Source: a virus | Direction: 5' to 3' (one strand) | Virus genome (UHGV): UHGV-0063828 | Length of the DNA: 37,358 nt | Shown here: one piece after another, positions 1 to 36,088 of the stretch | Layout: the number at the start of each line of letters is the position of its first letter | How positions within the stretch are numbered: the stretch's first letter is position 1 | Position numbers and translations under genes: made by a program | Notes under the pieces: model-generated | What the model was told of the DNA's origin: nothing | Database searches by the model: none | What the model saw: the letters and a program-made list of their open reading frames with translations, nothing else

Positions 1-49
1 ATAAAAAAGCCCCATCACAAGGACAGGGCTATAGAATCAATCACTTACA

Positions 50-355
50 TCACTTAATATCTTTCATTCTACGGATACGCGCGCTTGCTTCCGGTAGTTC
101 ATCCAGTGTTACGTGATAAGCAAGCATACAGACAGGAGTCGGATCGAATCCCTCATGAGTATTGATCAGATGGCTATTCCCGCCTTTAAACTCATCCTGT
201 CCATCCCACATAGCGTACACGTCATCTTCTGCTACATAGATAATCAATCCAATAGGGGAGTTAGTAAGCTGGAAGATGCAGCCAGTAGAATCAATGCGAT
301 GTTCCCGAACGTCATCAACAGTTTCAAAGTCAATCTTAATATCTTTAGTCTTCAT
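50..355 (-). CDS. Hypothetical protein (101 aa)
   Basis: ATG start with GAGGG Shine-Dalgarno on minus strand; weak hairpin plus T-run downstream; no recognisable motifs. Confidence 0.5.
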   Translation of the reverse strand: MKTKDIKIDFETVDDVREHRIDSTGCIFQLTNSPIGLIIYVAEDDVYAMWDGQDEFKGGNSHLINTHEGFDPTPVCMLAYHVTLDELPEASARIRRMKDIK

Positions 356-653
356 GATTTGCCCTCGCGTGAAAATATTTTCGATTATTTATAAAAAAGA
401 CTTGACAAAATCAAAAGGTACTGTTCCACTGGTGAAATAAAGGGAGTTTTCGGCACCCCGGTTTTTGATGTGCGTGTGAGATTTCAAAACAGGTGCAGTG
501 CAGCCCACCAGCGCGGTCGCTACGCGACTATTAACACCAGCCAATCCCTTTCCCCGCCTCGATCTTTCCCTTCGTTATAAAGCGTTTTAGGCGCTCTCCT
601 GAATGCGCAGATCAGATAAATAATTTTACGCAAATTTAATGGAGGATAACCGG

Positions 654-1208
654 ATGAAAGAAGAATTAACCCTTACAGAAATTTCCCGCTTATACGGCTA
701 TACAATTAACGCCGCTAAGAAATGGTTAGAAAGGGGTCTACCGATGAACACCCACACGCGTCGTGTACCACTCAAGGAAGGGACCGAATGGATAGCAAAA
801 AATATCATCAGTCCACTCAGGGAAACTACTGTCAAAGAACAAATCGACGTAGAGAAGTTACGCCGCGAGAGAGCATTAGCGGACGCAGCCGAACGAGAGA
901 ACCAGGAAGCAATGAATCTCCTGATTCCCGTCGGTTATGTAGAACAGCAACTAGCGGAATATTGTGGGAAAGTTAAAACTACCATCTTACAAATTTGTAC
1001 GATTGACGTTTTAGAAATTCTCGAATCTGCGAGTGACCAGAAAACATTAAAGAATAAGCTAAGGGAGATTATCGAGCGTCGTTTAAATGAAGTAGGTGAC
1101 TTGTTCGAAAATGCAGATTTGGGAGAAGACGAGGAAGAAGAATTACCATTAATGGATGAACCGGAAGAACAAGAACCAGAAGAAGACGATGAATTTGATG
1201 TGTCTTAA
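654..1208 (+). CDS. Nu1-like winged-HTH protein, putative terminase small subunit
   Basis: GGAGGA SD 7 nt before ATG at 654 (track start 639 lies inside the SD). N-terminal LTLTEISRLYGYTINAAKKWLERGLPM resembles the lambda Nu1 HTH as recalled; coiled-coil middle; acidic C-terminal tail. Confidence 0.45.
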   Translation: MKEELTLTEISRLYGYTINAAKKWLERGLPMNTHTRRVPLKEGTEWIAKNIISPLRETTVKEQIDVEKLRRERALADAAERENQEAMNLLIPVGYVEQQLAEYCGKVKTTILQICTIDVLEILESASDQKTLKNKLREIIERRLNEVGDLFENADLGEDEEEELPLMDEPEEQEPEEDDEFDVS

Positions 1209-1303
1209 AACGCGTTATAAATAAATGTATGAAAGATGTTGAACGGGTCAACGTCTACGGGGGGAGAACATCCCCCGCTTAACTTTTAAGAGGATATAAA
1301 ACT

Positions 1304-1588
1304 ATGGCTACTTTTATTACCTATGCTGTCATCATTACTATTCTGGCTGTTATTTCTGCTTATAAACTCGGAACCGAAAATAGAGAACGTGCTGAATTAT
1401 TCTTAGGTGCGTTTGTTGCATTTGCTAGCCTTGCGTTAATTGTCGAAGGAATTTCTTATATTGTTGGCCTAGTTAGTATGACACTTTTTAACTTCCATCC
1501 AACTATTGCTATGCATTTGATGCTGACCGTACTTTGGGTATATTGCTTAATCGAATTTTTAACGTTTGTTTTCAAACAGACTAAATAA
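1304..1588 (+). CDS. Small integral membrane protein (94 aa, 3-4 predicted TM helices)
   Basis: AAGAGGA SD; strongly hydrophobic throughout; followed by tetraloop terminators. Confidence 0.5.
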   Translation: MATFITYAVIITILAVISAYKLGTENRERAELFLGAFVAFASLALIVEGISYIVGLVSMTLFNFHPTIAMHLMLTVLWVYCLIEFLTFVFKQTK

Positions 1589-1746
1589 TATTGTAATCTG
1601 CCTTTTCTCCTTATGTGGTTTTAACAGGGGGCTTTCGAAAGAGAGTTCCCGATTAAAAGCCATAAAACACATTCAGTACAGTGTTTTCATAGTCAGTGAT
1701 CTATACAACATAAAAACATAACAAGTATAGATTGAGTATTAATCCT

Positions 1747-1773
1747 CCCGCCCTTCGGGGCGGTTATTTTTCT
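1747..1773 (+). terminator. Intrinsic terminator with UUCG tetraloop
   Basis: CCGCCC-TTCG-GGGCGG followed by TTATTTTT. Confidence 0.7.
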
Positions 1774-1847
1774 GGCTTTACTAGATAATGTAGCATTATG
1801 TTCATTATAACCTCATCTTTGTTGTGCAACCTAACCTAAACTTACTA

Positions 1848-1873
1848 GGGACTCTTCGGAGTCCCTTTTTTTA
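1848..1873 (+). terminator. Intrinsic terminator with UUCG tetraloop
   Basis: GGGACTC-TTCG-GAGTCCC followed by TTTTTTT. Confidence 0.7.
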
Positions 1874-2812
1874 TTGGCAGTAAGAAAAGTTAGTACCGTA
1901 CATTTCATCATGAAGCATTGCAGCATTGCGTTTCTGTTCTTCTTCCTCATCTTCTACATCACTAGAAAAATGAGATTTGCCCTTAAAAGAACGAAGTAAT
2001 TGCAGTGCAGCCATCGGATCACGCATCACATCGATTTTCACTTCTACTTCATCATTTGCGGCCTCATCAGCCGCGTTTTCAACTACTGCTACCGGAGCAA
2101 CTTCTTTAGCTTTCAGTTCTTCAATCTCAGCTTTCTGTGCTTCGATAATCTGGTCTTTTTCTTCCAGTGCAGCTTTCAGTTCTGCGATCTGTGCTTCCAG
2201 TGCAGCAAAGCGATCTTCAACAACCGGAGAAACAGCATTCACCTGTGCTTCCAGTTCCAGAAATGCTTCGCAAGATTCAATACGTTCTTTCTCTTCACCT
2301 TCATAAGCAACCAGTTCTACAACTTCTTTTTCGGTAGCGTGGCTGTTAAAGAAAACAGCAAAGTAAGGATTGCCGGATTTAGTGAAGTTCAGTTTAGCTT
2401 TTCCGGTAACTTCTTTACGACGACCGAAGGTGATCTGGCAATCAGCGGTATCCTGAAAATCCATGTTAGGAGCGGAAACGATAGCAGTATCACCAGCAAT
2501 AACCAGGTGGAACAGTTCAGAAGAGTTCTTAACGGTAAAGGTAACGATGTGGTCTACTGCAACGTCTTTAGCTGGTTTAACGCGGTCGATTGCTTTACGA
2601 ATGCCGTTAGGCAGTTTACCGTCAACACCAAAGCCAGCCGCGATCAGTGCTTCACGATGTGCTTTAAAGCCAGCGAAAGCGGATTTCTGCTGTGCAAAGG
2701 AAACATGAGCAACAACTTTCGGCTGAATCTTCTTGTTTGCTTCTGTGCCAAATTTGATAACTGCTTTAGCGTTGGTTACTTCGTTAGTGAAAAAGTTAGC
2801 GGAAAATAACAT
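1871..2812 (-). CDS. Hypothetical protein with coiled-coil segment and acidic C-terminal region (313 aa)
   Basis: ATG start with GGAG upstream; heptad-like AALEAQIAELKAALEEKDQIIEAQKAEIEELKAKE; acidic stretch DVEDEEEEQ near C-terminus. Confidence 0.5.
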   Translation of the reverse strand: MLFSANFFTNEVTNAKAVIKFGTEANKKIQPKVVAHVSFAQQKSAFAGFKAHREALIAAGFGVDGKLPNGIRKAIDRVKPAKDVAVDHIVTFTVKNSSELFHLVIAGDTAIVSAPNMDFQDTADCQITFGRRKEVTGKAKLNFTKSGNPYFAVFFNSHATEKEVVELVAYEGEEKERIESCEAFLELEAQVNAVSPVVEDRFAALEAQIAELKAALEEKDQIIEAQKAEIEELKAKEVAPVAVVENAADEAANDEVEVKIDVMRDPMAALQLLRSFKGKSHFSSDVEDEEEEQKRNAAMLHDEMYGTNFSYCQ

Positions 2813-2855
2813 TATAAATACTCCGTGGAAAGTTAGTTTTAATTGTTCATTTCAA

Positions 2856-2893
2856 GCCTCCCTTGTTGCAGCAAAGGAGGCTTTTTCTTTTTT
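2856..2893 (+). terminator. Plus-strand intrinsic terminator located between two minus-strand genes
   Basis: GCCTCC...GGAGGC stem followed by TTTTTCTTTTTT. Confidence 0.55.
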
Positions 2894-2925
2894 AAAGCCA
2901 TCATATAATTCTCAGTGAAAGGTTA

Positions 2926-3108
2926 TTACCACACCTCTGCGGTAATCTTTACTTTAATGTCATACTTCTTTAAGAGTTTGTGGAAGGTTGATTGATCAAT
3001 ACCTTCACCTTTAAACCATTCACCCATCACTACATCAGGTGTCAGTTCAAAATAACGCTTTGCCATTTCTAAAACGATTTCGCGAGTGAACTTAACAGGT
3101 CGTGCCAT
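2926..3108 (-). CDS. Small HTH-type DNA-binding protein (60 aa), candidate regulator
   Basis: Strong AGGAGGA SD before ATG; borders the large repeat-rich non-coding region and is divergent from the rightward early genes. Confidence 0.5.
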   Translation of the reverse strand: MARPVKFTREIVLEMAKRYFELTPDVVMGEWFKGEGIDQSTFHKLLKKYDIKVKITAEVW

Positions 3109-3626
3109 CTCGAATCCTCCTAAATCTGGATTAATGATTTCTTAAAAAAGAGCGTTAACCGCTCACTATTATTTATATGGGGATTGTATTTTATTTTTCA
3201 ACCCCTCACATTTATCTCTTATATATGTATTTATAACAGAGATATGTTAAAATGTTATTCAGATGTTATCAGGCGTGTTAAATGTGTTAAACCACAGCAC
3301 GAATTGCTAAAGCGAAGAACACGATTTAACCAAATTGATGTTTATTCAATCAATTTAGAAAAAGGCATAGCACTTTTTGCTAAAGCGGTGAGCATTAATT
3401 GAGCTATGAATTGTAAAGATTTGTTACAAGATTTTCTCTCAGATCCAAATCTTCACAGACATATAACAATTTAACACGGTGATAACAATAGGAAGGAAAA
3501 TCGGTAAATTTTCACTTTCAATACAAATATTATACCACATTTTTCTCGAATTGTCAAGTATAGCACCAAACCTACATAGTGTCAAGAAAGGACTTTCAAA
3601 CCTACACTAGCCCTACACTATGAAAA

Positions 3627-3866
3627 TTGCCCCTGAATTTTTGCCCCTGAACCAAAATCCCCCTAGATTCCACATCCCATTTTTGCCCCTGAAACCCACT
3701 ATTTTTGCCCCTGAAATTCTGGGGAACAGTGATTTTGCCCCTCATTTTTGCCCCTGAAATGCCAATAATTGCCCCTGAAAATCTCATTTTTGCCCCTGAA
3801 ATTTGCCCCCGAAAAGGATTGGTGAGAAAAACTCTTTATAAAACATTAACTTAGTGAGGGGCAAAA
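3627..3866 (+). repeat. Iteron-like array: 7 perfect and 2 variant direct copies of TTGCCCCTGAA, plus one inverted copy
   Basis: Perfect copies start at 3627, 3641, 3683, 3705, 3748, 3769, 3790; variants at 3735 and 3803; inverted GAGGGGCAAAA at 3856-3866; same motif forms the hairpin at 6324-6345. Confidence 0.85.
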
Positions 3867-4016
3867 GCGAGGGATCGGGCGTGCATAGATATTATATAAC
3901 ACATTCGCTACGCTCATGTGTAAAACCAAAAACAACAAATAACCAAAAAGATATTAGGAGGGCGTAGCCCGACTGCGCGAAGCGCCAACCAATTACTTCT
4001 AGTAACAACTAATTTA

Positions 4017-4230
4017 AACTAGATGATCTTAGAAGGAATTAACTAGTTTGCTCGCTCGCTTCGCTCACTCTCAAACGTCTGCGACGCCACTGCGTGGCAT
4101 CGAGAATCACTTCTGAAAGGATTTTCTTGAAAGGGATTTTAAACTAGTTACTAACTGATTCTAGAAAGATAGTAATAATCACTTTGAAGATAATAGTAGT
4201 TAACTGGTTACTAGATGATTCTAGATCACT
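4017..4230. repeat. Cluster of ACTAG-centred palindromes and direct repeats
   Basis: AACTAGTT at 4041-4048 and 4142-4149; AACTAGATGATCTTAGAA at 4017-4037 vs TTACTAGATGATTCTAGATC at 4208-4229; TCTAGA sites. Confidence 0.7.
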
Positions 4231-4485
4231 TTAATGATCATGAAAGGTATTGGTTATCCCTTCGGGATTGCAACCTTCGGTTGCTAAATTGCTTCCTGAT
4301 TATAATTTCTCCAAAAGAAAGATTCTTATATTCTAAAGATACTTCTTCGTTTTGATGATGATTTAATCAAAATCTATGAAGGAGGCGAAGCCGACTGAAT
4401 CCAATCACTTCCAAATAGATAAAAAATTCTCGTTATAAATACTAGTGTAATTTGTTTGATTCACTTTCTTTTAGAGGATACCACT

Positions 4486-4938
4486 ATGATCAATACTAAA
4501 ACTCCTTTCATTCTTCTGGGTCTGAACCATGATGATAATCTGGCTATGATGCATGTTTTCGCTAATCGTGGTTATAACATCATTCGTCATTCCGAAGACT
4601 CCAATTTCTCAACTGCTTTCTATGCTCTTAAACGTAATGGTCGCCCTACGGTTATCGTAGACTGCTTTACTGATGAAGGTCGTGAACAATACAACAACAT
4701 TCCGGCAATTATTGTTCGTGATGACCTGCCGTTTGATGTTCGTGAATATGACGTTGATTTAGGCTCTTACTACGGGATCGCGGATCTTGACCAGATTATG
4801 GCTGATTATGGTAAACAACCCGCTCAGGAAGCCCCAGAACACGATGAACAAGACGAAGATGACGACGACTACGCACCAATCGCTTTTTCTTCTCACGGTG
4901 GCTTCTACGGTTACGATGAAGGCTTAGATATGCTGTAA
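4486..4938 (+). CDS. Acidic early protein (150 aa), function unknown
   Basis: AGAGGA SD before ATG at 4486 (track start 4456 is a TTG); first gene after the non-coding region; very acidic C-terminal half (EHDEQDEDDDDY). Confidence 0.5.
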   Translation: MINTKTPFILLGLNHDDNLAMMHVFANRGYNIIRHSEDSNFSTAFYALKRNGRPTVIVDCFTDEGREQYNNIPAIIVRDDLPFDVREYDVDLGSYYGIADLDQIMADYGKQPAQEAPEHDEQDEDDDDYAPIAFSSHGGFYGYDEGLDML

Positions 4939-4973
4939 GTTAGGTCAACCCTTTGGCGTTTTGTCAAGGGGTA

Positions 4974-5003
4974 TTGACAAAATTTTATGACTTTTTTATG
5001 ATT
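4974..5003 (+). promoter_or_regulatory. Sigma70-like promoter TTGACA-N18-TATGAT with adjacent palindrome TTGTCAA-N6-TTGACAA (4961-4980)
   Basis: Hexamers read directly; located upstream of the gene at 5059. Confidence 0.45.
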
Positions 5004-5058
5004 ATCGCACTTGACAACTTTGAACCTATTTGACCTAGATTTGTAAAGAGGGTGTAAC

Positions 5059-5391
5059 ATGAAAGAATTTACCATCACTAAATCCCTGTATGACTGGACT
5101 GTTAAAATCTCCGGCAAAACCGTTTCTGTAAGCCCTAGCCATGTAGAAAATGATTGGGGCGTATCCCGTGAAACAATCTCCCGTAGTATGCATGTTCCGT
5201 TTGATCTGATGTCCTTAACTGGTATTCATGCAATGCTGGAAGTTCGCGAGCAATTCGAAGCTGGTAATCACAATGCGACTCCAGTTAGCAATCACCTTCT
5301 TACTAATGAAGAACGTGAAATCATCGAAAACTGGCGTTATGAATATGCGATTCCTTATTATGAAGAAGACCAAGTAGAAATCGATTGGTAA
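5059..5391 (+). CDS. Hypothetical protein (110 aa)
   Basis: AGAGGG SD; preceded by promoter-like TTGACA-N18-TATGAT. Confidence 0.5.
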   Translation: MKEFTITKSLYDWTVKISGKTVSVSPSHVENDWGVSRETISRSMHVPFDLMSLTGIHAMLEVREQFEAGNHNATPVSNHLLTNEEREIIENWRYEYAIPYYEEDQVEIDW

Positions 5392-5487
5392 TAAATTTCT
5401 ATCATAAATAAAATTGTTCCGGTGGTGATGCCGGAACTAGGAGGACCAATATCATTATCGCAAAACCGTTTAAGGGGAATTTTTACT

Positions 5488-6318
5488 ATGAATACTGTTA
5501 CTACTATGAATACTGCTGTTAAAACTGCTTCCGTGTCTCTGGTTGTTGATAACACCAAACCGCTGACCATGTCTTCTCGTCAGATCGCTGAATTTACCGG
5601 AAAAGAACACAAAAACGTTAAACGTGATATTAAATCCATGCTCGATGCTCTGGAATTAGATGTGCTCAGTTTTGAGCGCACCTATCTTGATCAGTGTGGA
5701 CGTGAACAAACCGAATATCACCTTGACGAAGAACTTACGCTGACTCTTGTTACTGGTTACGATGTTAAGCGTCGAATGGTTGTTATTCAGGAATGGAAAC
5801 GACTGAAAGAAGAAAATGAAAAACTGCGTTCTCAGCAAGTCAACCCATACGCAAACATGACTAAGCTCGATTGGATTCGTGAGGCAATGGAATTGGAAGC
5901 CGCAAACGAACAACTGATTCAAGAAAAGAAACAACTGGTTGAATTGCATGTTCGTAAAGCTATCGACACACACAGTCTTAGCCGCTTATTAGGCGAAAAA
6001 CGAGGCTCTACGAAGGTACAAATTATTCTGAAAGGTTTATGTGCTGCTGGTGTTCTTGAGCGTCGTCTGGATGCTTCTGGTAAGCCTAAAGGCTATGATC
6101 TGCTTCCTCCTGGCTATATGTTCGCTCGTATGTCGGCACACGGTCAGATCGAGTTCACTGCTGATGCTATCCCGCATCTCGTAAAACTCGGATTGCTTGA
6201 AGAAGAAAAGGCCGCAACTTTGAAATTGCCACAGCCGAATAACTCACGAGCAATCGTCAATAATACTGCTTTGCTGATTCGTCAGAATGCTGGATCACTG
6301 GAACACTTCGGACTGTGA
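5488..6318 (+). CDS. Rha-family phage regulatory protein / antirepressor
   Basis: Motif MSSRQIAEFTGKEHKNVKRDIKSML matches the Rha N-terminal signature as recalled; AAGGGG SD before ATG at 5488; tetraloop-free hairpin terminator downstream. Confidence 0.6.
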   Translation: MNTVTTMNTAVKTASVSLVVDNTKPLTMSSRQIAEFTGKEHKNVKRDIKSMLDALELDVLSFERTYLDQCGREQTEYHLDEELTLTLVTGYDVKRRMVVIQEWKRLKEENEKLRSQQVNPYANMTKLDWIREAMELEAANEQLIQEKKQLVELHVRKAIDTHSLSRLLGEKRGSTKVQIILKGLCAAGVLERRLDASGKPKGYDLLPPGYMFARMSAHGQIEFTADAIPHLVKLGLLEEEKAATLKLPQPNNSRAIVNNTALLIRQNAGSLEHFGL

Positions 6319-6325
6319 TAATTTT

Positions 6326-6356
6326 TGCCCCTGAATTTCAGGGGCTTTTTGTTTTC
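6326..6356 (+). terminator. Intrinsic terminator after the Rha-like gene, built from the iteron motif
   Basis: GCCCCTGAA-T-TTCAGGGGC followed by TTTTTGTTTT. Confidence 0.7.
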
Positions 6357-6364
6357 TATAGGTA

Positions 6365-6389
6365 TAAAAAAGCCACTCCGAAGAGTGGC
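6365..6389 (-). terminator. Minus-strand intrinsic terminator with UUCG tetraloop
   Basis: On minus strand GCCACTC-TTCG-GAGTGGC followed by TTTTTT. Confidence 0.65.
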
Positions 6390-6397
6390 AATGAGAA

Positions 6398-6625
6398 TCA
6401 AACTCCGTTGATTGGTACAACCTCTCCACCGTCTACACGTATAAAGAACTCGACATTAAGTTTCTTCATACTTTTATAAAACTGGGCGGTGGAGATGCCC
6501 AGATCGTTTAATACTTTCTCTCTGCTTTCTTTACCTTTGCCAGCTTTGTAAAACTCGTAGCAAATGTATGCCAGTTGTTCACGATTAAAACGGGCAGGGC
6601 GACCGCGAGTAGCTTTAGTAGTCAT
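6398..6625 (-). CDS. Small DNA-binding-like protein (75 aa) sharing a C-terminal motif with the adjacent 200 aa protein
   Basis: Start placed at ATG with GGAGAAA SD (track start is a GTG); RGRP N-terminus; C-terminal KKLNVEFFIRVDGGEVVPI resembles [21 protein letters not shown] of the neighbour. Confidence 0.4.
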   Translation of the reverse strand: MTTKATRGRPARFNREQLAYICYEFYKAGKGKESREKVLNDLGISTAQFYKSMKKLNVEFFIRVDGGEVVPINGV

Positions 6626-6660
6626 AGTCATTTTCTCCAAATTAAAGTGAATGTTCACCT

Positions 6661-7263
6661 TTATTTAGAGGACTTAGATTTTATAGGAAAAAGTTCTCCA
6701 TCGTCAATACTCATAAAGAACTCAACCTTAATCCCGTACTTCTTCAACCGTGAATAATATGTACCCCGACTTATATCAACCTTGCGAAGCACTTCAAAGA
6801 AGGATTTAGGATCGTTGTAATAGTGGCTGTACTTCACGTTAGCGAGTTCAACGAATAGTTCCCTTGTATCACCATAGCCTTTCTTGAAAGCGATGTTACG
6901 AGGCATTGTAACAGCCATATTATCCCGTGTCTGTTTCAACACTTCTCGGATCGGCTTCCACTGCAACCGATAGATAGGACCGTCATCAATGCGATAATAA
7001 CGCTTGATATCAAAATCAAACCATTCACGGACTCGCTGAAACTCTGTCTGTGATGTTCGGTGCTTCTTAAAGAAGTTATGGATATCTGTATACCCATGAT
7101 CGCGATACAACTCGATTAAAATTTGCTTCGCTTCTTCGCGACTAAAGCCGGATGTTGTGTAATCAGTCTTCTTGTGATGGTGCTTAACTGGCAAACGATA
7201 TTCATGATCGGTACAAGACAAGGCTAATTCTAATTCATCTCTTTCTTGCTGATTAATTAGCAT
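6661..7263 (-). CDS. Hypothetical protein (200 aa) with repeated HTH-like modules
   Basis: Strong AAGGAGGG SD; internally repeated helix-rich units; divergent from the large terminase gene. Confidence 0.5.
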
Positions 7264-7350
7264 ACACCCTCCTTAAATCTTAATACCCGTATTTATCAAA
7301 AAATCAACAATTTAATAAATACCTTCATATTTCGTAATGAGGGTAATTAC

Positions 7351-9258
7351 ATGAAACTGATTTCTAATAAGGCAAAATTAAAAAAGATTCTTAAAAATGC
7401 AGCCAAATATATTACGCCACCGCCTAAGCTCCTTCCTTCTGAATGGTGCGAAGCGAATCTAACGCTAGTCGATGGTCCTCGTGCTGGGGATAAAGTTAAA
7501 TTACTGTCATTTCAGAAAGGCATGATTGATGCTCCTTTCCTTGAGAAGAAAAAGAAGTACGTTTTTTGTACGAGTGCGCAGATCGGAAAGACGACCATCA
7601 TGTCAGGGATCATGTTTAACCAGATGGCAAACGATCCGTGCAATATCATTATCGGGCAAAGTACCGCTAAAGAAGTGGCTATGTACTTGAATACTAAGAT
7701 CCGTCCTTCTATTGAAGCATGTCCGGCATTACAGGAAGTGGTAACAGATAAGAATGATCGTAATGCGGTAAACAACAATAACCAGATTCAGCTAAAAACA
7801 AACCATTTCCTTTACATGGTTTCTTTGACCAGTCCTTCAAGTTTGCGTGGGCGTACTGCCAAGTTAGGGATTGTAGACGAATGCGACGCAGCAACAATCA
7901 CCGAAGAAGGTTGTCCGGTGGCACTAACTGCAAACCGTTTAACTACCTTTGGTGATGAAGCTCGATTGATTGTTTCTAGTACCCCAACCAATAAGCTGGG
8001 AATCATTAACCAGCAATGGTTATCAAGTGATATGCGTATGTTTTTTGTTCCGTGTCCTCATTGCGGGGAACACCAGGTGATCGAGTGGGAAAACGTTCAA
8101 TTTGAATGGCGTAACATCGATGGTAAGAACTTACCCGATCCTGATACCGCTCGTTATATTTGCCCCCACTGTAAGAACGCATGGACCGAAGGGGAACGAA
8201 TCAGGGCAGTAGCACAAGGCGAGTGGAGAGCAACCCGTGAAAGTGAGGTAGCAGGATTCTGGATCAGCCGTCTGTATTCACCTTTCAGCACGATCCGCGC
8301 TTGTGTGGTTGATTTTAGTCATGCGTGGCAATCCTTTGATTTACAATCATTTTATAACACCGTGTTAGGCAAGGTATACGACGATCAGGACACGGCAGTA
8401 GAAGCAAATGAACTGGAACAACTCAAAACAGATGTTTCTATCGAGAATATCCCTGATGACGTAATTTTCTTGTGCTCAGGAATTGACCAGCAATTGGACC
8501 GCGCAGAATCTACCATCTTAGGTGTAGCGAAAGATAAGGTTTACATTCTGGATCACCGCAGCTTTTACGATCATAACTGTGAACGATACGAATCACCTGT
8601 TTGGGATCGTCTGGTTAACTTCAAGAAAACCAAATTCTATAACGTTAATGGTGAACGTGTGCCAATGCTCGCCAGCTTCCTTGATACATCGAACGGTCGA
8701 TTCACTCAAGCCGGATACCGTATTTGCGGCAAGTGGAAGAACCTACACGCTATCAAAGGTAGTTCATCTGGTAATGCTCCAGTGATTCCGGTTAAACCTA
8801 CCCGCACAGGTGGTCATGAATTGCTTATGTTGGGTGTTAACGTTGGGAAATCTGCTGTTCGTGAAATGTTGGTTAGAAACCTGAAAGACAATCCTCACAT
8901 TGGCTTAGAAATATCAGAAACCGTTCCTGATGATTATCTCGATCAGCTTTTGAGTGAATCCATCAAGCGTACTACTACTGGCGTGCGTTGGGTGAAAAAT
9001 CCAGGTAGTACCCGAAACGAGGCTCTCGACTGTCTGGTTTATAGCTATGCTGCTTCTCGCTACGTCCTTTCAAAAATGTCATGGGATAAACTCATTGCAA
9101 TGAAAGACAGCTTAAACCGTGTTGTCGAAGAATCCGTAAAAGCTCCTGAAACGCAATCTGACGAGCAAATCGAAGAAACTAAGCCAATCACACGACCGCA
9201 ACGTCAAAACATCGCCAGACGCCCAAATAGAGGCCGTAGCTGGGTAACATCGTTCTAA
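7351..9258 (+). CDS. Terminase large subunit, lambda gpA family
   Basis: P-loop region [10 protein letters not shown]; zinc-ribbon-like CPHCGEHQ...CPHC; GIDQQLDR and RNEALDC motifs as recalled from lambda gpA. Confidence 0.9.
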
Positions 9259-9330
9259 TAACTCGCCGTCCTTCGGGGCGGCTTACTCCTAAATATTGTT
9301 AATCCAATAACAATTAAATAAGGGGTAATT

Positions 9331-30897: not shown

Positions 30898-32388
30898 TTA
30901 TATAGCAATTGTTTTAGTTGCATAGCTGAACTTGTCGGTTAGATAATAGCGGATTCTCTCAAGTGCATGTTTTACCGCATAATTTTTATGCTTGACTTTT
31001 CCGTTACGACCGAATATACACAAATGATCGATAAGATCCCAGACCGTTGCAATGTCTTTCGAACCATGTTTACGCAATGCACGACCGATACTCTGACGAA
31101 CGATAGTTGATTCCTTCACTGGATGACCGAAAATAACATGGTGCAAATTCTTAATTGAAACACCAGTAGAGAACACACCATAAGACGCAACACAAATGAT
31201 CCCGGTGTCACCCTCCGCCATTTTCTTAAATTCATCACGTTCTTCTGTCTTAACTCCACCGTCAATATAATAAACCTTGTCGTGTACCTTCTGTAACGCG
31301 TCATACATAAGTTTTCCGTGCTTAGTATTGCGGAACATCAGGAATACGTTTTCGCCCTTCTTAGCGAGTTTTAGCGCCAAATTACAAGCAAACTTATTTC
31401 GTCGTGGGTTAGATGTAATATACTTGATCTCTTCCGCATATTCTCTCCCCTTAACCGCGCTACATTCCTCATCGGTATAACGAAGGAAAAGACAGTTGAT
31501 TTTCAGTTTCGTCACTTGACCTTCTTCCATCAGGCGGTCAATACTCACGATCTTAGAAATATCACCGAAAAGCCCGACATACTGCATTAAATGGCACTTT
31601 GATTCTTTCGGGGAACCAGTCATACCGATCTTAAACTGGCAATGATTCATTCCGTTAATGATATTGGTAATATTTTTGGCACTAGCCTTATGCGATTCAT
31701 CAACTATCAACATTCCATATTGTCGGAACCATTCAGGAGGCATCTTGCAAGCTGATTGCCAGGTACTAACCGTGATTAACCTGTCTCCCGGATGTTTCCC
31801 GCTACCACTCATCATTGTATGGATTGCTTCATAAGGGAATAACCGATAATCGATGAAATCATCCCTCATTTGAACCACTAGCGATGTAGTCGGGACAATG
31901 ATTAACACCTTTCCGGTGTAATGCTCTAAGTACCAACGAGACAGCATACAAGCAATCAATGACTTTCCGGCACTGGTAGGAAGAACCAGCATTCTACGGC
32001 GATTGTGGATACCCTGAAAGACTGCTTCACGCTGATACCAGTAAGGATTGATTTTATTGGAACCGGAATACACTTCTAAAGAGTCAATCCACGAATCAAT
32101 CTGTTCTTTGGTTACATCTTCCTTCTCAAGTAATCGCGGGTCAATCCAGACTGAATAGCCCATATTTTTAACGAAGACACCCAATGTTTTTAATAGTCCA
32201 ATTGGTAGGGTATTTTCATGCGTAAACAGTCTTATTCGTCCATCCCAGCCGGAATACTTGTAGCGGGGGCTAAACCTAGCCCCTTCAACCTCAAACGAGA
32301 AATAATCTCTTAATTCCATTCCGATAGAAGGAGAGCAATCAACCTTAACGAAACTGTAATCTTGAAAATGAATTTTAATATCTTGCAT
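30898..32388 (-). CDS. SF2 helicase, T4 UvsW-like
   Basis: Walker A LPTSAGKS, DESH box, TGSP, QSIGRALR motifs; N-terminus MQDIKIHFQDYSFVKVDC resembles T4 UvsW as recalled; start placed at ATG 32388 with GGAGTGG SD (track start 32397 is GTG). Confidence 0.65.
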   Translation of the reverse strand: MQDIKIHFQDYSFVKVDCSPSIGMELRDYFSFEVEGARFSPRYKYSGWDGRIRLFTHENTLPIGLLKTLGVFVKNMGYSVWIDPRLLEKEDVTKEQIDSWIDSLEVYSGSNKINPYWYQREAVFQGIHNRRRMLVLPTSAGKSLIACMLSRWYLEHYTGKVLIIVPTTSLVVQMRDDFIDYRLFPYEAIHTMMSGSGKHPGDRLITVSTWQSACKMPPEWFRQYGMLIVDESHKASAKNITNIINGMNHCQFKIGMTGSPKESKCHLMQYVGLFGDISKIVSIDRLMEEGQVTKLKINCLFLRYTDEECSAVKGREYAEEIKYITSNPRRNKFACNLALKLAKKGENVFLMFRNTKHGKLMYDALQKVHDKVYYIDGGVKTEERDEFKKMAEGDTGIICVASYGVFSTGVSIKNLHHVIFGHPVKESTIVRQSIGRALRKHGSKDIATVWDLIDHLCIFGRNGKVKHKNYAVKHALERIRYYLTDKFSYATKTIAI

Positions 32389-32957
32389 TAGTTCCACTCC
32401 ACACTTGCAATATTCTTTATATTGTTTAGTGATTTATTGCAGTAGTGGAATGTTTCAGTTTTACCGTATTCAATCCCGCCTATACCCACATCCAGTAATC
32501 TCTTTATTGCTCTTTCAGTGGCTAAAGCATGTTTCATTGATGGCATTTCACCAGCAAAGACAATATCAAAGTTATGACCGGGATTGCGTACACCCAGATT
32601 AACACGTCGCTTGATGATTGACTTTGTAACACCAAATTTACCAATATCCCCTGATTTCATTACATAGAGATAAGGCACACCCGCTTTATATTGAAAGTAA
32701 TCACTTTTGAGACATGCACAGCGTTTACCTTCATTAAGCAGGTTGGTAGCTGATTTGTCGGCTCTATTGCCGCATCTGGTACATGTAAGAGCAATTCTTG
32801 AATGAAGCCCTTTAAACTCACCCAGAAAGCCATGAAAGACTAATGGTAAGTCCTTCTCTTTGATGTGAGTCAGAATGCGTTGTTCTAATGCCGATGGAGT
32901 TACAGCACGGGAGGATTTAGGAGTAAAAACAATATCTTTAGCCATTACTGGAATCAT
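32388..32957 (-). CDS. Zinc-ribbon plus T5orf172 (GIY-YIG-like) domain protein
   Basis: CTRCGN...CACLK cysteine pairs followed by YLYVMKSGDIGKFGVTK...ERAIKR...GKTETFHY; stop overlaps the helicase ATG (TAATG). Confidence 0.55.
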   Translation of the reverse strand: MIPVMAKDIVFTPKSSRAVTPSALEQRILTHIKEKDLPLVFHGFLGEFKGLHSRIALTCTRCGNRADKSATNLLNEGKRCACLKSDYFQYKAGVPYLYVMKSGDIGKFGVTKSIIKRRVNLGVRNPGHNFDIVFAGEMPSMKHALATERAIKRLLDVGIGGIEYGKTETFHYCNKSLNNIKNIASVEWN

Positions 32958-33110
32958 ATAGACCTCACTTTTTAACTTATAGGCATAACCTCAATATGGT
33001 TGGTTTGGGATTTAGGGTCGCGTATTATACACATCCAGATAGAGAATGCAATAGTAAGACAATTTTCTCTAATAAATAGTAGTGAGCTTATTATTTTAGA
33101 GGAAACTACT

Positions 33111-34286
33111 ATGAAACTTGCTTACGCTGCCGAAATTCCTTTTGTTAAGAAAACTCGCGGTTTATCGCCGGAAGAGTACCAACAACGAATCATCGCTAAA
33201 CTGGAACCTGCTTTCGTATTTGGTGGATTTATCCTACCGTGGAAGGGTAATCACACTTACTTTCGAATCTACAATTTAGATACACAAGAATATAAGGACT
33301 ACAAATTACGCAAACTGGAAGATACTAACGGGGGTGAGTTATTCCAGACTGAAAAGGCTGTATGGTTGAAAATGGAATCTCGTTGTAATGAGAAGGGAAA
33401 GAAATTCCTCGGATGGCAAGGAGAATGGAAAGGGCGAAATAGAACGAAAGCCCGTGTTTTGTGCCCTGAACACAATCAAATCATGACGCCATCTCTATTA
33501 CATGCTCTTAAAGATGATTTCGATTTTGATTGCAAAATCTGTATGGCTGAAAAATCCCAACGGGTAAGAAGTGGCAAGACTTTTGATGAAGTTATTAAGG
33601 ACAAAGAGACAATCATCAATGCACGTTGCGAGACTACACCTTACATCTTCAAAGGATTCATCATAAACACCCCACACCTAAAGGATGTTAAATTTAAAAC
33701 CTATTGCAAGACACATAACCACGAATGGGAATCTCATTTAAGATGTGCTGATTCTTTCACTTGTCCGCTTTGCATTAAAGACCAACTGGTGCAACTGTCT
33801 AACCGGACTTATCAGGGTAAGGCTAGTTTCTACATTCAATTATTAGATGACAAATTTATTAAATTTGGAATCACTACCCGGAAACCAGAAGAACGAATGA
33901 GAGAGCAAACCAGAAAGAGCAACTTCACTCACCGCTTAATCTTTACTCATGAGTTTGAGGATGGTTGGAAAGCCGTTGATTTAGAGCATGAAGTAAAACA
34001 ACGCTTCAAGACTCATGCAGCACCCTACAAAGATTTCAAGGATGGATGGTCGGAAACTCTGACTATTGATGAGTTACCACACTTACAGCAACTGGTTTAT
34101 GACTACCTAACCAATCAACCGGACGAGGCTAATATGTGGGTATCTCCGAAAGATGTATTTGATGACGATACATTCAAGCTACATACTCACTTCTACGGCA
34201 TCAATAAACCGGAATTTTTCTGTATTGATGACGACAGTCCTGATTTAATGGATGAATACTTTAATACTCTCTTAGAGGCTCTCTAA
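33111..34286 (+). CDS. Zinc-finger plus T5orf172 (GIY-YIG-like) domain protein
   Basis: Start placed at ATG 33111 with AGAGGA SD; Cys/His clusters (CPEHN...CKIC; CKTHNH...CPLC) then FYIQLLDDKFIKFGITTRKPEERMRE...GWSETL. Confidence 0.55.
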   Translation: MKLAYAAEIPFVKKTRGLSPEEYQQRIIAKLEPAFVFGGFILPWKGNHTYFRIYNLDTQEYKDYKLRKLEDTNGGELFQTEKAVWLKMESRCNEKGKKFLGWQGEWKGRNRTKARVLCPEHNQIMTPSLLHALKDDFDFDCKICMAEKSQRVRSGKTFDEVIKDKETIINARCETTPYIFKGFIINTPHLKDVKFKTYCKTHNHEWESHLRCADSFTCPLCIKDQLVQLSNRTYQGKASFYIQLLDDKFIKFGITTRKPEERMREQTRKSNFTHRLIFTHEFEDGWKAVDLEHEVKQRFKTHAAPYKDFKDGWSETLTIDELPHLQQLVYDYLTNQPDEANMWVSPKDVFDDDTFKLHTHFYGINKPEFFCIDDDSPDLMDEYFNTLLEAL

Positions 34287-34359: not shown

Positions 34360-36039
34360 TTAAATTCCAAATTCCTGTAATGGACCTGGTATTTCCTCTT
34401 CTGGTTTCCAGTTCTTATCTGTCAGCATGTCTAAACATGGATGCAAAACAAGCCCGTTACTTTCCAGAATCTGCCTATCATTGATAGTTTTCAAATCAAT
34501 GAATATCCGGCCTTTCCTCGTTCCTCTTGAATTTTCTATTACAACTCTCTGGGTTTTTCCATCGATGTATTCCAGTACAAACAAGTTTTTGTTTCTGTCA
34601 ATCCTGCTACACCCGATCCGCTTTAGAGCTTGCTTAATCTTAAACCGGACCTTTAGTCGTTCCTCGTTGTAAACATCTTCTAAATCAAATTCTGCGAGCT
34701 TCTCCCAGCCTTGAGAGTCAACAGAATACATTTCCTCTTCTGCCATCTTGATCTGATTGTAGAGTGTTTCACGCTCGCTATTGAGGGTAGTAATCTGATC
34801 GGCTAGTTCCTTCGTTGCTCCTGTCATAGCAGAAAGGGCAATCAGGTTATCAATCTTGCGTGATATCTCATCAACCTGTACTTTCAACGCCGGAACCGGA
34901 TTAGCCTTATCCTCAGCAATCCAGATTTTATCAGCCAGCAATTGCAATACAGCTTTCTCTAATTGATCACCTCGAAAACTCCAGTTTGGATGCTCGCAAT
35001 CAAGTCTACGTGAACGGGTCGCATCACATGTATAACGATACTGGTCAGAACGTTTGTTCGTTCCCTTCACTTTAACCATAGCGCAACCGCAATGATCACA
35101 TTTCAATAGGCCAATACCACTAAGCAGGGGGATCGGTTTAACTTCTTCCTTGTCTCCAAAGTTCCATGCTCTAGCACCAATATTTTTCTTAAGGTGATAG
35201 AACGTAGCATCATCAATAACACGAGGGTAATAATCCTTTAACTCATAGTTAACGCCATCTACAGAGACCTCCTTGATACCAATCAAAGCGCGGGTATGAA
35301 ACAACCTTTCAACCATTGCCCGTGACCATTTTGAATGCTTCTTATTACTAACCGCTGGTGGTGGTGCATATGTCTCGTTAAGGTGATCCAGTATTTCGGC
35401 GGTTGAACGTCCATTCTTCCGTAATTCCACAATCTCCTGAACAACAGGGAAGAAGACCGGATGAGGCAACACATAACCGGAAGTGGTATCAGTCCACCAC
35501 ATATTCTTTCCAACTTCCTCGATTGCCACTGCCGGATTCTGGGGATTTTCTTGATGGGCTTTAATCTTAATCAGTGCGCTTGAGTTAGTACGATTGCGCT
35601 TAGTCTGGCTTTCCTCATTACCACGGATGAATAAAAGGATGGAGAACATCAGGTCCATCGGATTAGCGGTAACAGTATCCAGCGAGTAGATCTTGTTATC
35701 CATGCCAGTAACAATGGTTATCCCCCTACGGATTATTGAAAGGAATAACTCCTGCGCACTGACAATATCGGCACGGGATAAACGGTCCAAGTTTTCAATG
35801 AATAGCCAGCTACCAACAGGAACGGATCTACCAATTGCATCAAGGAAACGAGATAGCGCCCCTGTTTTAGAGTTAGCACCTTTAAACGCAGATACACCCA
35901 GATCCTGATAATCATTTACCAGTTCTAAGTCATACTTTGCCGCAATCTCTCTCGCCATCCTGATTTGTCGTTCATAACTCGAACCATCACTCTGACGCAT
36001 AGACGAGAAGCGAATATACGAATACAGTTTAGTTTTCAT
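34360..36039 (-). CDS. Large serine recombinase (integrase)
   Basis: N-terminal resolvase-type catalytic domain (YSYIRFSSMRQ, ENLDRLSR); cysteine-rich zinc ribbon (CDHCGC...YTCDA...CEH); C-terminal coiled coil; ~559 aa from ATG at 36039. Confidence 0.85.
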   Translation of the reverse strand: MKTKLYSYIRFSSMRQSDGSSYERQIRMAREIAAKYDLELVNDYQDLGVSAFKGANSKTGALSRFLDAIGRSVPVGSWLFIENLDRLSRADIVSAQELFLSIIRRGITIVTGMDNKIYSLDTVTANPMDLMFSILLFIRGNEESQTKRNRTNSSALIKIKAHQENPQNPAVAIEEVGKNMWWTDTTSGYVLPHPVFFPVVQEIVELRKNGRSTAEILDHLNETYAPPPAVSNKKHSKWSRAMVERLFHTRALIGIKEVSVDGVNYELKDYYPRVIDDATFYHLKKNIGARAWNFGDKEEVKPIPLLSGIGLLKCDHCGCAMVKVKGTNKRSDQYRYTCDATRSRRLDCEHPNWSFRGDQLEKAVLQLLADKIWIAEDKANPVPALKVQVDEISRKIDNLIALSAMTGATKELADQITTLNSERETLYNQIKMAEEEMYSVDSQGWEKLAEFDLEDVYNEERLKVRFKIKQALKRIGCSRIDRNKNLFVLEYIDGKTQRVVIENSRGTRKGRIFIDLKTINDRQILESNGLVLHPCLDMLTDKNWKPEEEIPGPLQEFGI

Positions 36040-36051
36040 ACCATTTCCAAA

Positions 36052-36088
36052 CAAAAACGCCCCTACCGTGTATTATAACGATAGGGGC
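36052..36088 (-). terminator. Minus-strand terminator between secreted-protein gene and integrase start; loop contains TATAAT
   Basis: On minus strand GCCCCTA...TAGGGGC stem followed by GTTTTTGTTT; candidate integrase promoter overlaps. Confidence 0.45.

Follow-up and report, generated by a model that had tools for sequence, protein, structure and literature searches.

The 37,358 nucleotides of UHGV virus genome UHGV-0063828 (the whole stretch of DNA analysed here, hereafter the window) comprise a complete prophage of ~37 kb from a temperate siphophage integrated in the Escherichia coli ycdX gene, with a truncated ycdX abutting the left end and the rest of ycdX, followed by ycdY, at the right end. 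This report concerns the terminase of this phage, for which a gene resembling that of a Nu1-type small subunit (TerS) and the gene for the large subunit (TerL) do not lie next to each other. Reading from the left, attL is followed by a minus-strand open reading frame (ORF) of 101 amino acids (aa), the TerS-like gene, ~6 kb of intervening DNA, and the TerL, portal, protease-capsid and tail genes; after these come the lysis genes, a UvsW-like helicase gene, GIY-YIG/CapR genes, the recombinase gene and attR, and the window is complete in its head, tail, lysis and integrase genes. The features on which the argument turns are these:

414-454, plus strand: bipartite element A(A/T)AG(G/T)TACT-N23/24-GA(T)GTTT(T)CG(C/G)C, 200-240 nt 5' of the TerS ATG
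654-1208, plus strand: predicted terminase small subunit (TerS), Nu1 type, 184 aa (PHROG 57, hhalign, AlphaFold2 model)
7351-9258, plus strand: terminase large subunit (TerL), lambda gpA family, 635 aa (Pfam, PHROG 15)
34360-36054, minus strand: large serine recombinase

TerL is the first gene of the structural operon, and the original prediction, which had placed it in the lambda gpA family, is borne out by matches far above the gathering scores to Pfam GpA_ATPase (PF05876, 1.9e-55) and GpA_nuclease (PF20454, 2.6e-44), as well as by a match to PHROG 15 (2e-130). The same prediction had singled out 654-1208 as the only Nu1-like gene and proposed a profile search of its product against TerS families. 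The ORF starts with the ATG at 654, with GGAGGA at 641-646 (seven bases ahead), ends with the stop at 1208 and shares its start methionine with its homologues. Its product matches PHROG 57 ('terminase small subunit') over residues 2-173 (E 2.8e-15), a family that also includes two TerS proteins, from Achromobacter phage Mano and Escherichia phage ECO1230-10, whose genes overlap a gpA-type TerL and which both pass Pfam Phage_Nu1. A hidden Markov model (HMM) built from 18 sequences of the 654-1208 family matched the Mano TerS (4e-9) and the ECO1230-10 TerS (3e-6) from end to end and lambda Nu1 at 4e-5, while hhalign returned a probability of 91.8% against lambda Nu1 (E 7e-7, 86 columns) and of 97.3% against Nu1 together with the Mano and ECO1230-10 TerS (E 2.4e-11, 130 columns). 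The link of 654-1208 to Nu1 thus comes from PHROG 57 and from profile-profile comparison.

The AlphaFold2 (AF2) model of the product has an N-terminal winged helix-turn-helix (wHTH; strand-helix-helix-strand at residues 4-39, with a predicted local distance difference test score (pLDDT) of 80-85) and three long helices (residues 40-152), which align with those of the TerS from Mano and from ECO1230-10; the acidic tail (residues 156-184), ending in EFDVS, is disordered. The Nu1 DNA-binding domain is of the same fold class as the wHTHs of MerR, BldC and Xis, and the top Foldseek matches to the model were the N-terminal domain of a phage TerS (6hn7_B, probability 0.93, E 0.3) and the wHTHs of MerR, BldC and Xis; a PDB profile search gave weak matches to 1j9i, 6hn7 and 7lw0 over residues 5-72. 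On the AF2 model, then, the product carries a predicted wHTH of the MerR/Nu1 type, with structural matches all at E of at least 0.28.

No other ORF of the window matches the HMMs of the family itself or of the lambda, Mano or ECO1230-10 TerS at E<=10. The gene is intact in all 28 orthologues (183-186 aa) with a median pairwise dN/dS, the ratio of nonsynonymous to synonymous substitution rates, of 0.11, a pattern that indicates purifying selection. The alternative offered in the original prediction, that small-subunit function might be supplied differently, is rejected in view of this uniqueness and constraint and of the outgroup orthologues described below, which overlap TerL. By homology, 654-1208 is this phage's Nu1-type TerS, a member of a divergent subfamily that RefSeq labels 'hypothetical protein' in annotated relatives. 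The 164-aa gene after TerL was considered as another TerS and rejected, as it matches no TerS HMM; it occupies the position of the ECO1230-10 'head-tail joining' gene and has no significant similarity to that gene.

Synteny comparison with related prophages, likewise proposed at the outset, revealed that the order TerS-intervening DNA-TerL is invariant in 25 IMG/VR loci, in which the distance from TerS start to TerL start ranges from ~6.7 to 9.1 kb, and that it extends to more distant relatives. The split order is kept in an E. coli prophage with a TerL 50% identical (L032/L033), where lysozyme and a pair of defence-like genes precede TerS, and where the interval between TerS and TerL consists of minus-strand genes, a non-coding stretch of 1.1 kb, plus-strand genes and a second set of minus-strand genes, in this order. 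A degraded Serratia marcescens prophage (L034) and the siphophage part of the record for Escherichia phage DCP80, both with a TerL identity of 43%, likewise have TerS behind the lysis genes and a long way from TerL. Homologues of the TerS protein itself occur also in Salmonella and Proteus. For an outgroup, we searched 80 gpA-type TerL loci from species-representative genomes with three TerS HMMs and detected TerS in 47 loci; in 45 of them it abuts or overlaps the TerL start, in two (Campylobacter) it lies just after TerL, and in none is it separated. The nearest outgroup loci, from Enterobacter, Buttiauxella, Serratia proteamaculans, Pseudescherichia and Kluyvera (TerL 35-41%), have TerS orthologues (E 1e-17 to 1e-39) that overlap TerL. 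Since TerS overlaps TerL in the outgroup and is split from it in the clade members, the split is a derived, clade-defining character, and the adjacency to TerL that is usual for Nu1-type genes, and is absent here, is typical but not essential. As judged from these gene orders, the separation of TerS from TerL is a fixed, lineage-wide arrangement rather than a recent insertion. The proposal that the packaging operon had been split by an island therefore stands as far as separation by regulatory-looking DNA is concerned, while the recent insertion that it implied does not, given a split that is lineage-wide, reaches down to 43% TerL identity and is found in E. coli, in Serratia and in a phage isolate.

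Relatives that lack the integrase module have TerS directly behind the endolysin/lysis genes and in the same orientation, so that TerS is more aptly viewed as the gene that ends the late region. In the E. coli members, the lysis genes and TerS are separated by an inserted block with helicase, GIY-YIG, recombinase and attP; since the genes flanking TerS upstream are all on the minus strand, the late transcript cannot reach TerS, which would need a promoter of its own. Homology among relatives starts exactly at 401, one base before the TTGACA (402-407) of a promoter-like sequence, TTGACA-N17-TACTGT, that overlaps the bipartite element. The mosaic boundary at 401 is sharp, and to its left relatives carry unrelated DNA (a 101-aa ORF, a GIY-YIG/CapR gene or, in L032, TIR and YuaX defence-like genes), which marks an accessory-gene hot spot just upstream of the element. 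The GIY-YIG/CapR gene found directly 5' of TerS in some relatives, where it replaces the 101-aa ORF, is similar to genes that this prophage carries between its lysis genes and its recombinase; that segment (30898-34286) encodes a UvsW-like helicase (UvsW_N 2e-34) and two proteins with a CapR domain, one of 189 aa and one of 428 aa that also carries GIY-YIG (T5orf172/MUG113).

The bipartite element at 414-454 recurs 5' of TerS in all clade members for which the upstream DNA was available, and also in the unsplit outgroup loci L041, L043 and L046, where it stands within otherwise unalignable intergenic DNA. Its two arms are similar to the sequences that flank cosN in lambda (cAGGTTACG and CGCGGGTTTTCGC, on either side of the overhang GGGCGGCGACCT) and in N15 (GTTACG and CGCAGATTCTCGC, on either side of GGGCGGCGTCCG), and its distance to TerS matches the distance from lambda cosN to nu1. 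With 24 nt, its spacer is longer than that of lambda (18 nt); were the nicks placed with the same geometry, the cohesive end would be ~18 nt long. Resting on a resemblance recognised post hoc, the identification of 414-454 as cos is plausible but falls somewhat short of probable; the alternatives are that the element is a promoter/leader element, or that cos lies within the 1.35-kb non-coding region between TerS and TerL. Two possible sources of physical genome ends were rejected. IMG/VR contigs of 35.3-35.6 kb with TerS at a fixed distance from one end are proviruses whose opposite end carries the recombinase, so that their ends are att sites and not cos; the ends of the DCP80 record are uninformative on cos because the record starts inside a minus-strand gene and has T4-like genes from ~30.7 kb. 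Two further sequences were discarded as well: AGKTACTNT, considered as a repeated late-promoter element, is a single occurrence and not above chance, and TATTTATMAAAAAA, common to the DNA 5' of TerS (386) and of TerL (7290), is not above chance at 2 mismatches and was dropped also because its TerS copy lies left of the 401 junction and is absent from relatives.

Taken together, we think it highly probable that this is a complete temperate siphophage that encodes a lambda-type two-subunit terminase from unlinked genes, with 654-1208 as TerS, in an architecture fixed in its lineage. In the mechanism that we propose, the wHTH N-terminus of TerS, as modelled, would recognise the packaging site, the predicted helical middle would oligomerise and the acidic tail would, by analogy with lambda, bind the basic N-terminus of TerL; as the two subunits come from unlinked genes, the holoenzyme would assemble in trans. 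TerS would close the late region, behind the lysis genes, and a putative early-control region would separate it from TerL; that region would combine strong promoters facing in opposite directions, a putative iteron array, a Rha regulator and small proteins that are candidates for DNA binding. Where an integrase/helicase/attP module has been inserted between lysis and TerS, as in the E. coli members, TerS would be expressed from its own promoter, and cos would most likely stay with TerS at 414-454, much as lambda cos lies just upstream of Nu1.

Several observations weigh against this interpretation. The 654-1208 product has no match to Pfam Phage_Nu1 (PF07471) at E<=1 and none in NCBIfam; its AF2 model is only moderate (pLDDT 73.6, predicted template modelling score 0.33), no Foldseek match to it is significant (best E 0.28), and none of its PDB sequence and fold matches to TerS is significant on its own (E 0.25-0.3). 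The promoter-like site ahead of TerS has a poor -10 (3/6 matches), there are no R-site-like repeats between the cos candidate and TerS, and the ends of the 11 metagenome contigs with the element are not consistently there. In the DNA between TerS and TerL, no repressor or replication initiator was identified. Some of these points could also fit a wHTH regulator at 654-1208, such as an excisionase or recombination directionality factor for the adjacent serine recombinase site, with TerL acting alone or with an unrecognised partner: the fold is common to Xis, MerR and BldC proteins, the Pfam Nu1 match is missing, the gene lies ~600 bp from attL in E. coli prophages, and the Mano and ECO1230-10 TerS also weakly match PHROG 66 'excisionase'. 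We nevertheless consider a regulator very improbable, since the homology to bona fide TerS runs well past the wHTH (130 columns), the outgroup orthologues overlap TerL, and the window holds no alternative TerS candidate. In L032, L034 and DCP80 the gene follows the lysis genes, away from integrase and att; linkage to att is found in E. coli members only, which speaks against an excisionase or directionality-factor identity. The 184-aa product, with its TerS-homologous helical region, is also larger than typical Xis proteins.

That TerS overlaps TerL in the outgroup does mean that some rearrangement happened, and the region between the two genes is highly mosaic among relatives, as might be expected if a mobile or regulatory island had recently been inserted into a contiguous cos-TerS-TerL operon of this prophage. 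Such a recent event is nonetheless very unlikely, for the split is common to all clade members examined, across genera and with TerL identities down to 43%, and no transposase, integrase or repeat boundaries flank 1209-7350. Moreover, this region holds the phage's only early-control-like features, and the position of TerS after the lysis genes in relatives puts the early region in a standard module position instead of making it an extra; among ~90 genomes and contigs, none is a close relative (TerL >80%) with TerS abutting TerL. The clear degradation of the Serratia L034 relative by insertion of an insertion sequence (IS) could be taken to suggest that the prophage is defective and its TerS-like gene a decaying relic of rearrangement. 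This is hardly credible for a gene that is full-length and under constraint in all 28 orthologues, in a window with complete head, tail, lysis and integrase functions, and for a prophage that is spread over numerous unrelated strains and has integrated at more than one site.

If an unlinked lambda-type terminase is accepted, the pairing of subunit alleles among relatives bears on how the two proteins would meet. Two TerL alleles, ~57% identical, are paired with the same TerS (>90% identical) in otherwise similar prophages. The alleles part at a junction at 7398 (codon 16) and agree in all of their first 14 residues (window 7351-7398 compared with L001 27364-27411 and with many IMG/VR loci); TerS variants differ mainly in residues 1-80 and have their C-terminal half in common. 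In lambda, the Nu1 C-terminus binds the gpA N-terminus. The identity of the first 14 TerL residues and the constant C-terminal half of TerS, viewed by analogy with lambda, suggest that the acidic tail of TerS contacts the basic helix at the N-terminus of TerL. More speculatively, the determinants of packaging specificity (cos together with the DNA-binding domain of TerS) and the TerL motor might be separately recombining modules, physically and transcriptionally independent and coupled solely through the TerS tail and the TerL N-terminal helix, with TerS under its own promoter on a schedule differing from that of the late operon and possibly with a second regulatory role near attP; we regard this extended model as doubtful. 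The portal gene and the 164-aa gene are also mosaic among relatives.

The gap between TerS and TerL amounts to 6142 bp (1209-7350) with 9 genes on both strands. The original prediction had described it as ~6 kb with a list of genes and with promoters and terminators of its own, all of which we recovered at their coordinates; its gene list had overlooked the 110-aa gene at 5059-5391. The features of the gap are:

1258-1277, plus strand: terminator-like hairpin after TerS
1304-1588, plus strand: 94-aa membrane protein with multiple transmembrane segments, a variable accessory gene that many relatives lack
1748-1763 and 1847-1866: terminator-like hairpins
1871-2812, minus strand: 313-aa coiled-coil protein of the putative leftward early operon, variably present among relatives
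2926-3108, minus strand: 60-aa protein, first gene of the leftward operon
3109-4455: non-coding control/repeat region, 1347 bp
4486-4938, plus strand: first gene read rightward; its 150-aa product has an acidic C-terminus
5059-5391, plus strand: 110-aa protein
5422/5488-6318, plus strand: Rha-domain regulator/antirepressor (Phage_pRha 1.7e-13, PHROG 63 1.4e-19)
6327-6345: terminator-like hairpin after the Rha gene
6398-6658, minus strand: 86-aa gene
6661-7263, minus strand: 200-aa gene

Relatives keep the layout of this region but differ widely, in mosaic fashion, in the genes that fill it (for example, the L032 counterpart of the 313-aa gene encodes an analogous 287-aa ZapB-like protein), and terminator-like hairpins delimit the transcription units. 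Two consensus sigma-70 promoters at 3529-3585, both leftward (12/12 and 11/12 matches, both with an extended -10) read into the 60-aa and 313-aa genes, and on the plus strand a promoter with 11/12 matches (TTGACA-17-TATGAT, 4974-5002) precedes the 110-aa and Rha genes, the latter probably starting at 5488, as in RefSeq relatives. From the promoters, the Rha domain and the position, we infer that the intervening DNA is the early-control region, and it is the only region of the phage that looks like one. Just upstream of the leftward promoters, ~10 copies of TTTTTGCCCCTGAAA (3626-3814), mostly spaced by 21/22 or 42/43 bp, could form an operator or iteron set; an extra copy of TTTTTGCCCCTGAAA forms the terminator hairpin after the Rha gene (6321-6345). 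The non-coding region also contains 5 of the window's 13 GCGNAGC motifs within 485 bp (3907-4391), where ~0.2 would be expected. Motifs of the GCGNAGC class form very stable DNA mini-hairpins, and C(TTCG)G hairpins occur near the cluster. A comparable non-coding region of 1.0-1.3 kb is found in L032, L034 and DCP80, and the GC-rich motifs GGCGTAGCC, CGCT(A/T)CGCT and GCGCGAAGCGC recur in these equivalent regions of the distant relatives (L032 5893-6190, L034 20700-20980, and L003, the DCP80 record, 446-890); they could mark an origin/priming signal or structured RNAs. A search of 1-7400 against Rfam gave one sub-threshold snoRNA chance match only.

The 60-aa, 86-aa and 200-aa minus-strand proteins share a weak paralogous domain of ~55 aa (BLASTP E 4e-8 to 2e-4), which is C-terminal in the 86-aa and 200-aa proteins and of which the 200-aa protein may, from its sequence, hold two copies. 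None of the three matches Pfam or PHROG; the description of the 86-aa and 200-aa genes as 'DNA-binding-like' in the original prediction thus finds no profile support, and we treat all three proteins as candidate phage-specific DNA-binding regulators.

Compared with lambda (gpNu1 and gpA, with cosN-cosB immediately upstream of nu1), the phage has the same type of TerL with ATPase and nuclease domains, a TerS with a predicted Nu1-like wHTH and following helical region, a conserved element ~200 nt 5' of TerS that resembles cosN flanks, and portal and protease-capsid genes after TerL. It differs from lambda in that nu1 and A overlap (191-736 and 711-2636) whereas here the two genes are 6.1 kb apart with the putative early region between them, in a TerS that escapes Pfam Phage_Nu1 and has a strongly acidic C-terminal tail, and in a candidate cos with a longer spacer. 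The Mano/Jilinvirus-type phages (Achromobacter phage Mano, Escherichia phage ECO1230-10, HeidiAbel and Serratia MQ-4) share the PHROG 57 TerS family, with full-length alignment, and a TerL of the same family at 28-31% identity, and ECO1230-10 also has lysis genes just upstream of TerS, but in these phages TerS and TerL are adjacent or overlapping and not unlinked. In P2 and 186, the terminase genes M and P are in divergent operons, not contiguous and separately transcribed; the P2 subunits belong to other families and their genes, next to cos, are separated only by scaffold and capsid genes, with no early region between them. Pseudomonas phage E217 is a large lytic PB1-like myovirus with a ring-type TerS unrelated to the lambda Nu1/gpA cos system, in contrast to the lambda-type Nu1/gpA pair of the temperate siphophage described here. 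It does provide a precedent for terS and terL not being neighbours, its terS lying ~58 kb from terL (review PMC9611059).

With unlinked terS and terL already documented in E217 (PMC9611059) and the machinery itself known, the finding is modest; what is new is the lineage-wide unlinked gene order of a lambda-type terminase. Annotation pipelines seek TerS beside TerL, and because TerS in this lineage is called 'hypothetical' and lies far from TerL, the lineage looks as if it had no small terminase. Recognising the unlinked arrangement yields a testable prediction for cos (414-454), and the natural reassortment of TerS and TerL alleles could help to map the minimal TerS-TerL interface of lambda-type terminases. 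The lineage occurs in ~1% of complete E. coli genomes and occasionally carries mcr-1: the first 9.3 kb of the window were found in 64 of 5426 such genomes, at 80-97% identity. Megablast of 1-9300 against cultured phages gave no DNA-level match, and the only match in a tblastn search of TerS against phages was the DCP80 record. A profile scan of species-representative genome contigs with the TerS alignment returned nothing, because the species representatives are without this prophage, and nothing relevant was found in the literature on ycdX prophages.

The DCP80 record (GenBank PQ671644, 'Escherichia phage DCP80', 140,978 bp, classified as Gaprivervirus; L003/L004) appears to be chimeric: its first ~30 kb are a siphophage related to this prophage, and after ~30.7 kb it continues with T4-like genes (motA, rIIA, gp44 and others), with rIIA present twice in opposite orientation. 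In E. coli PE15 (L165, NZ_CP041628), where the prophage adjoins a truncated hicB and not ycdX, an ISApl1-mcr-1-pap2-ISApl1 composite transposon (1814-6467) sits between TerS and the 313-aa gene, which places a chromosomal colistin-resistance gene inside this prophage lineage; the same mcr-1 transposon insertion is also present in H57 (strain HeN100).

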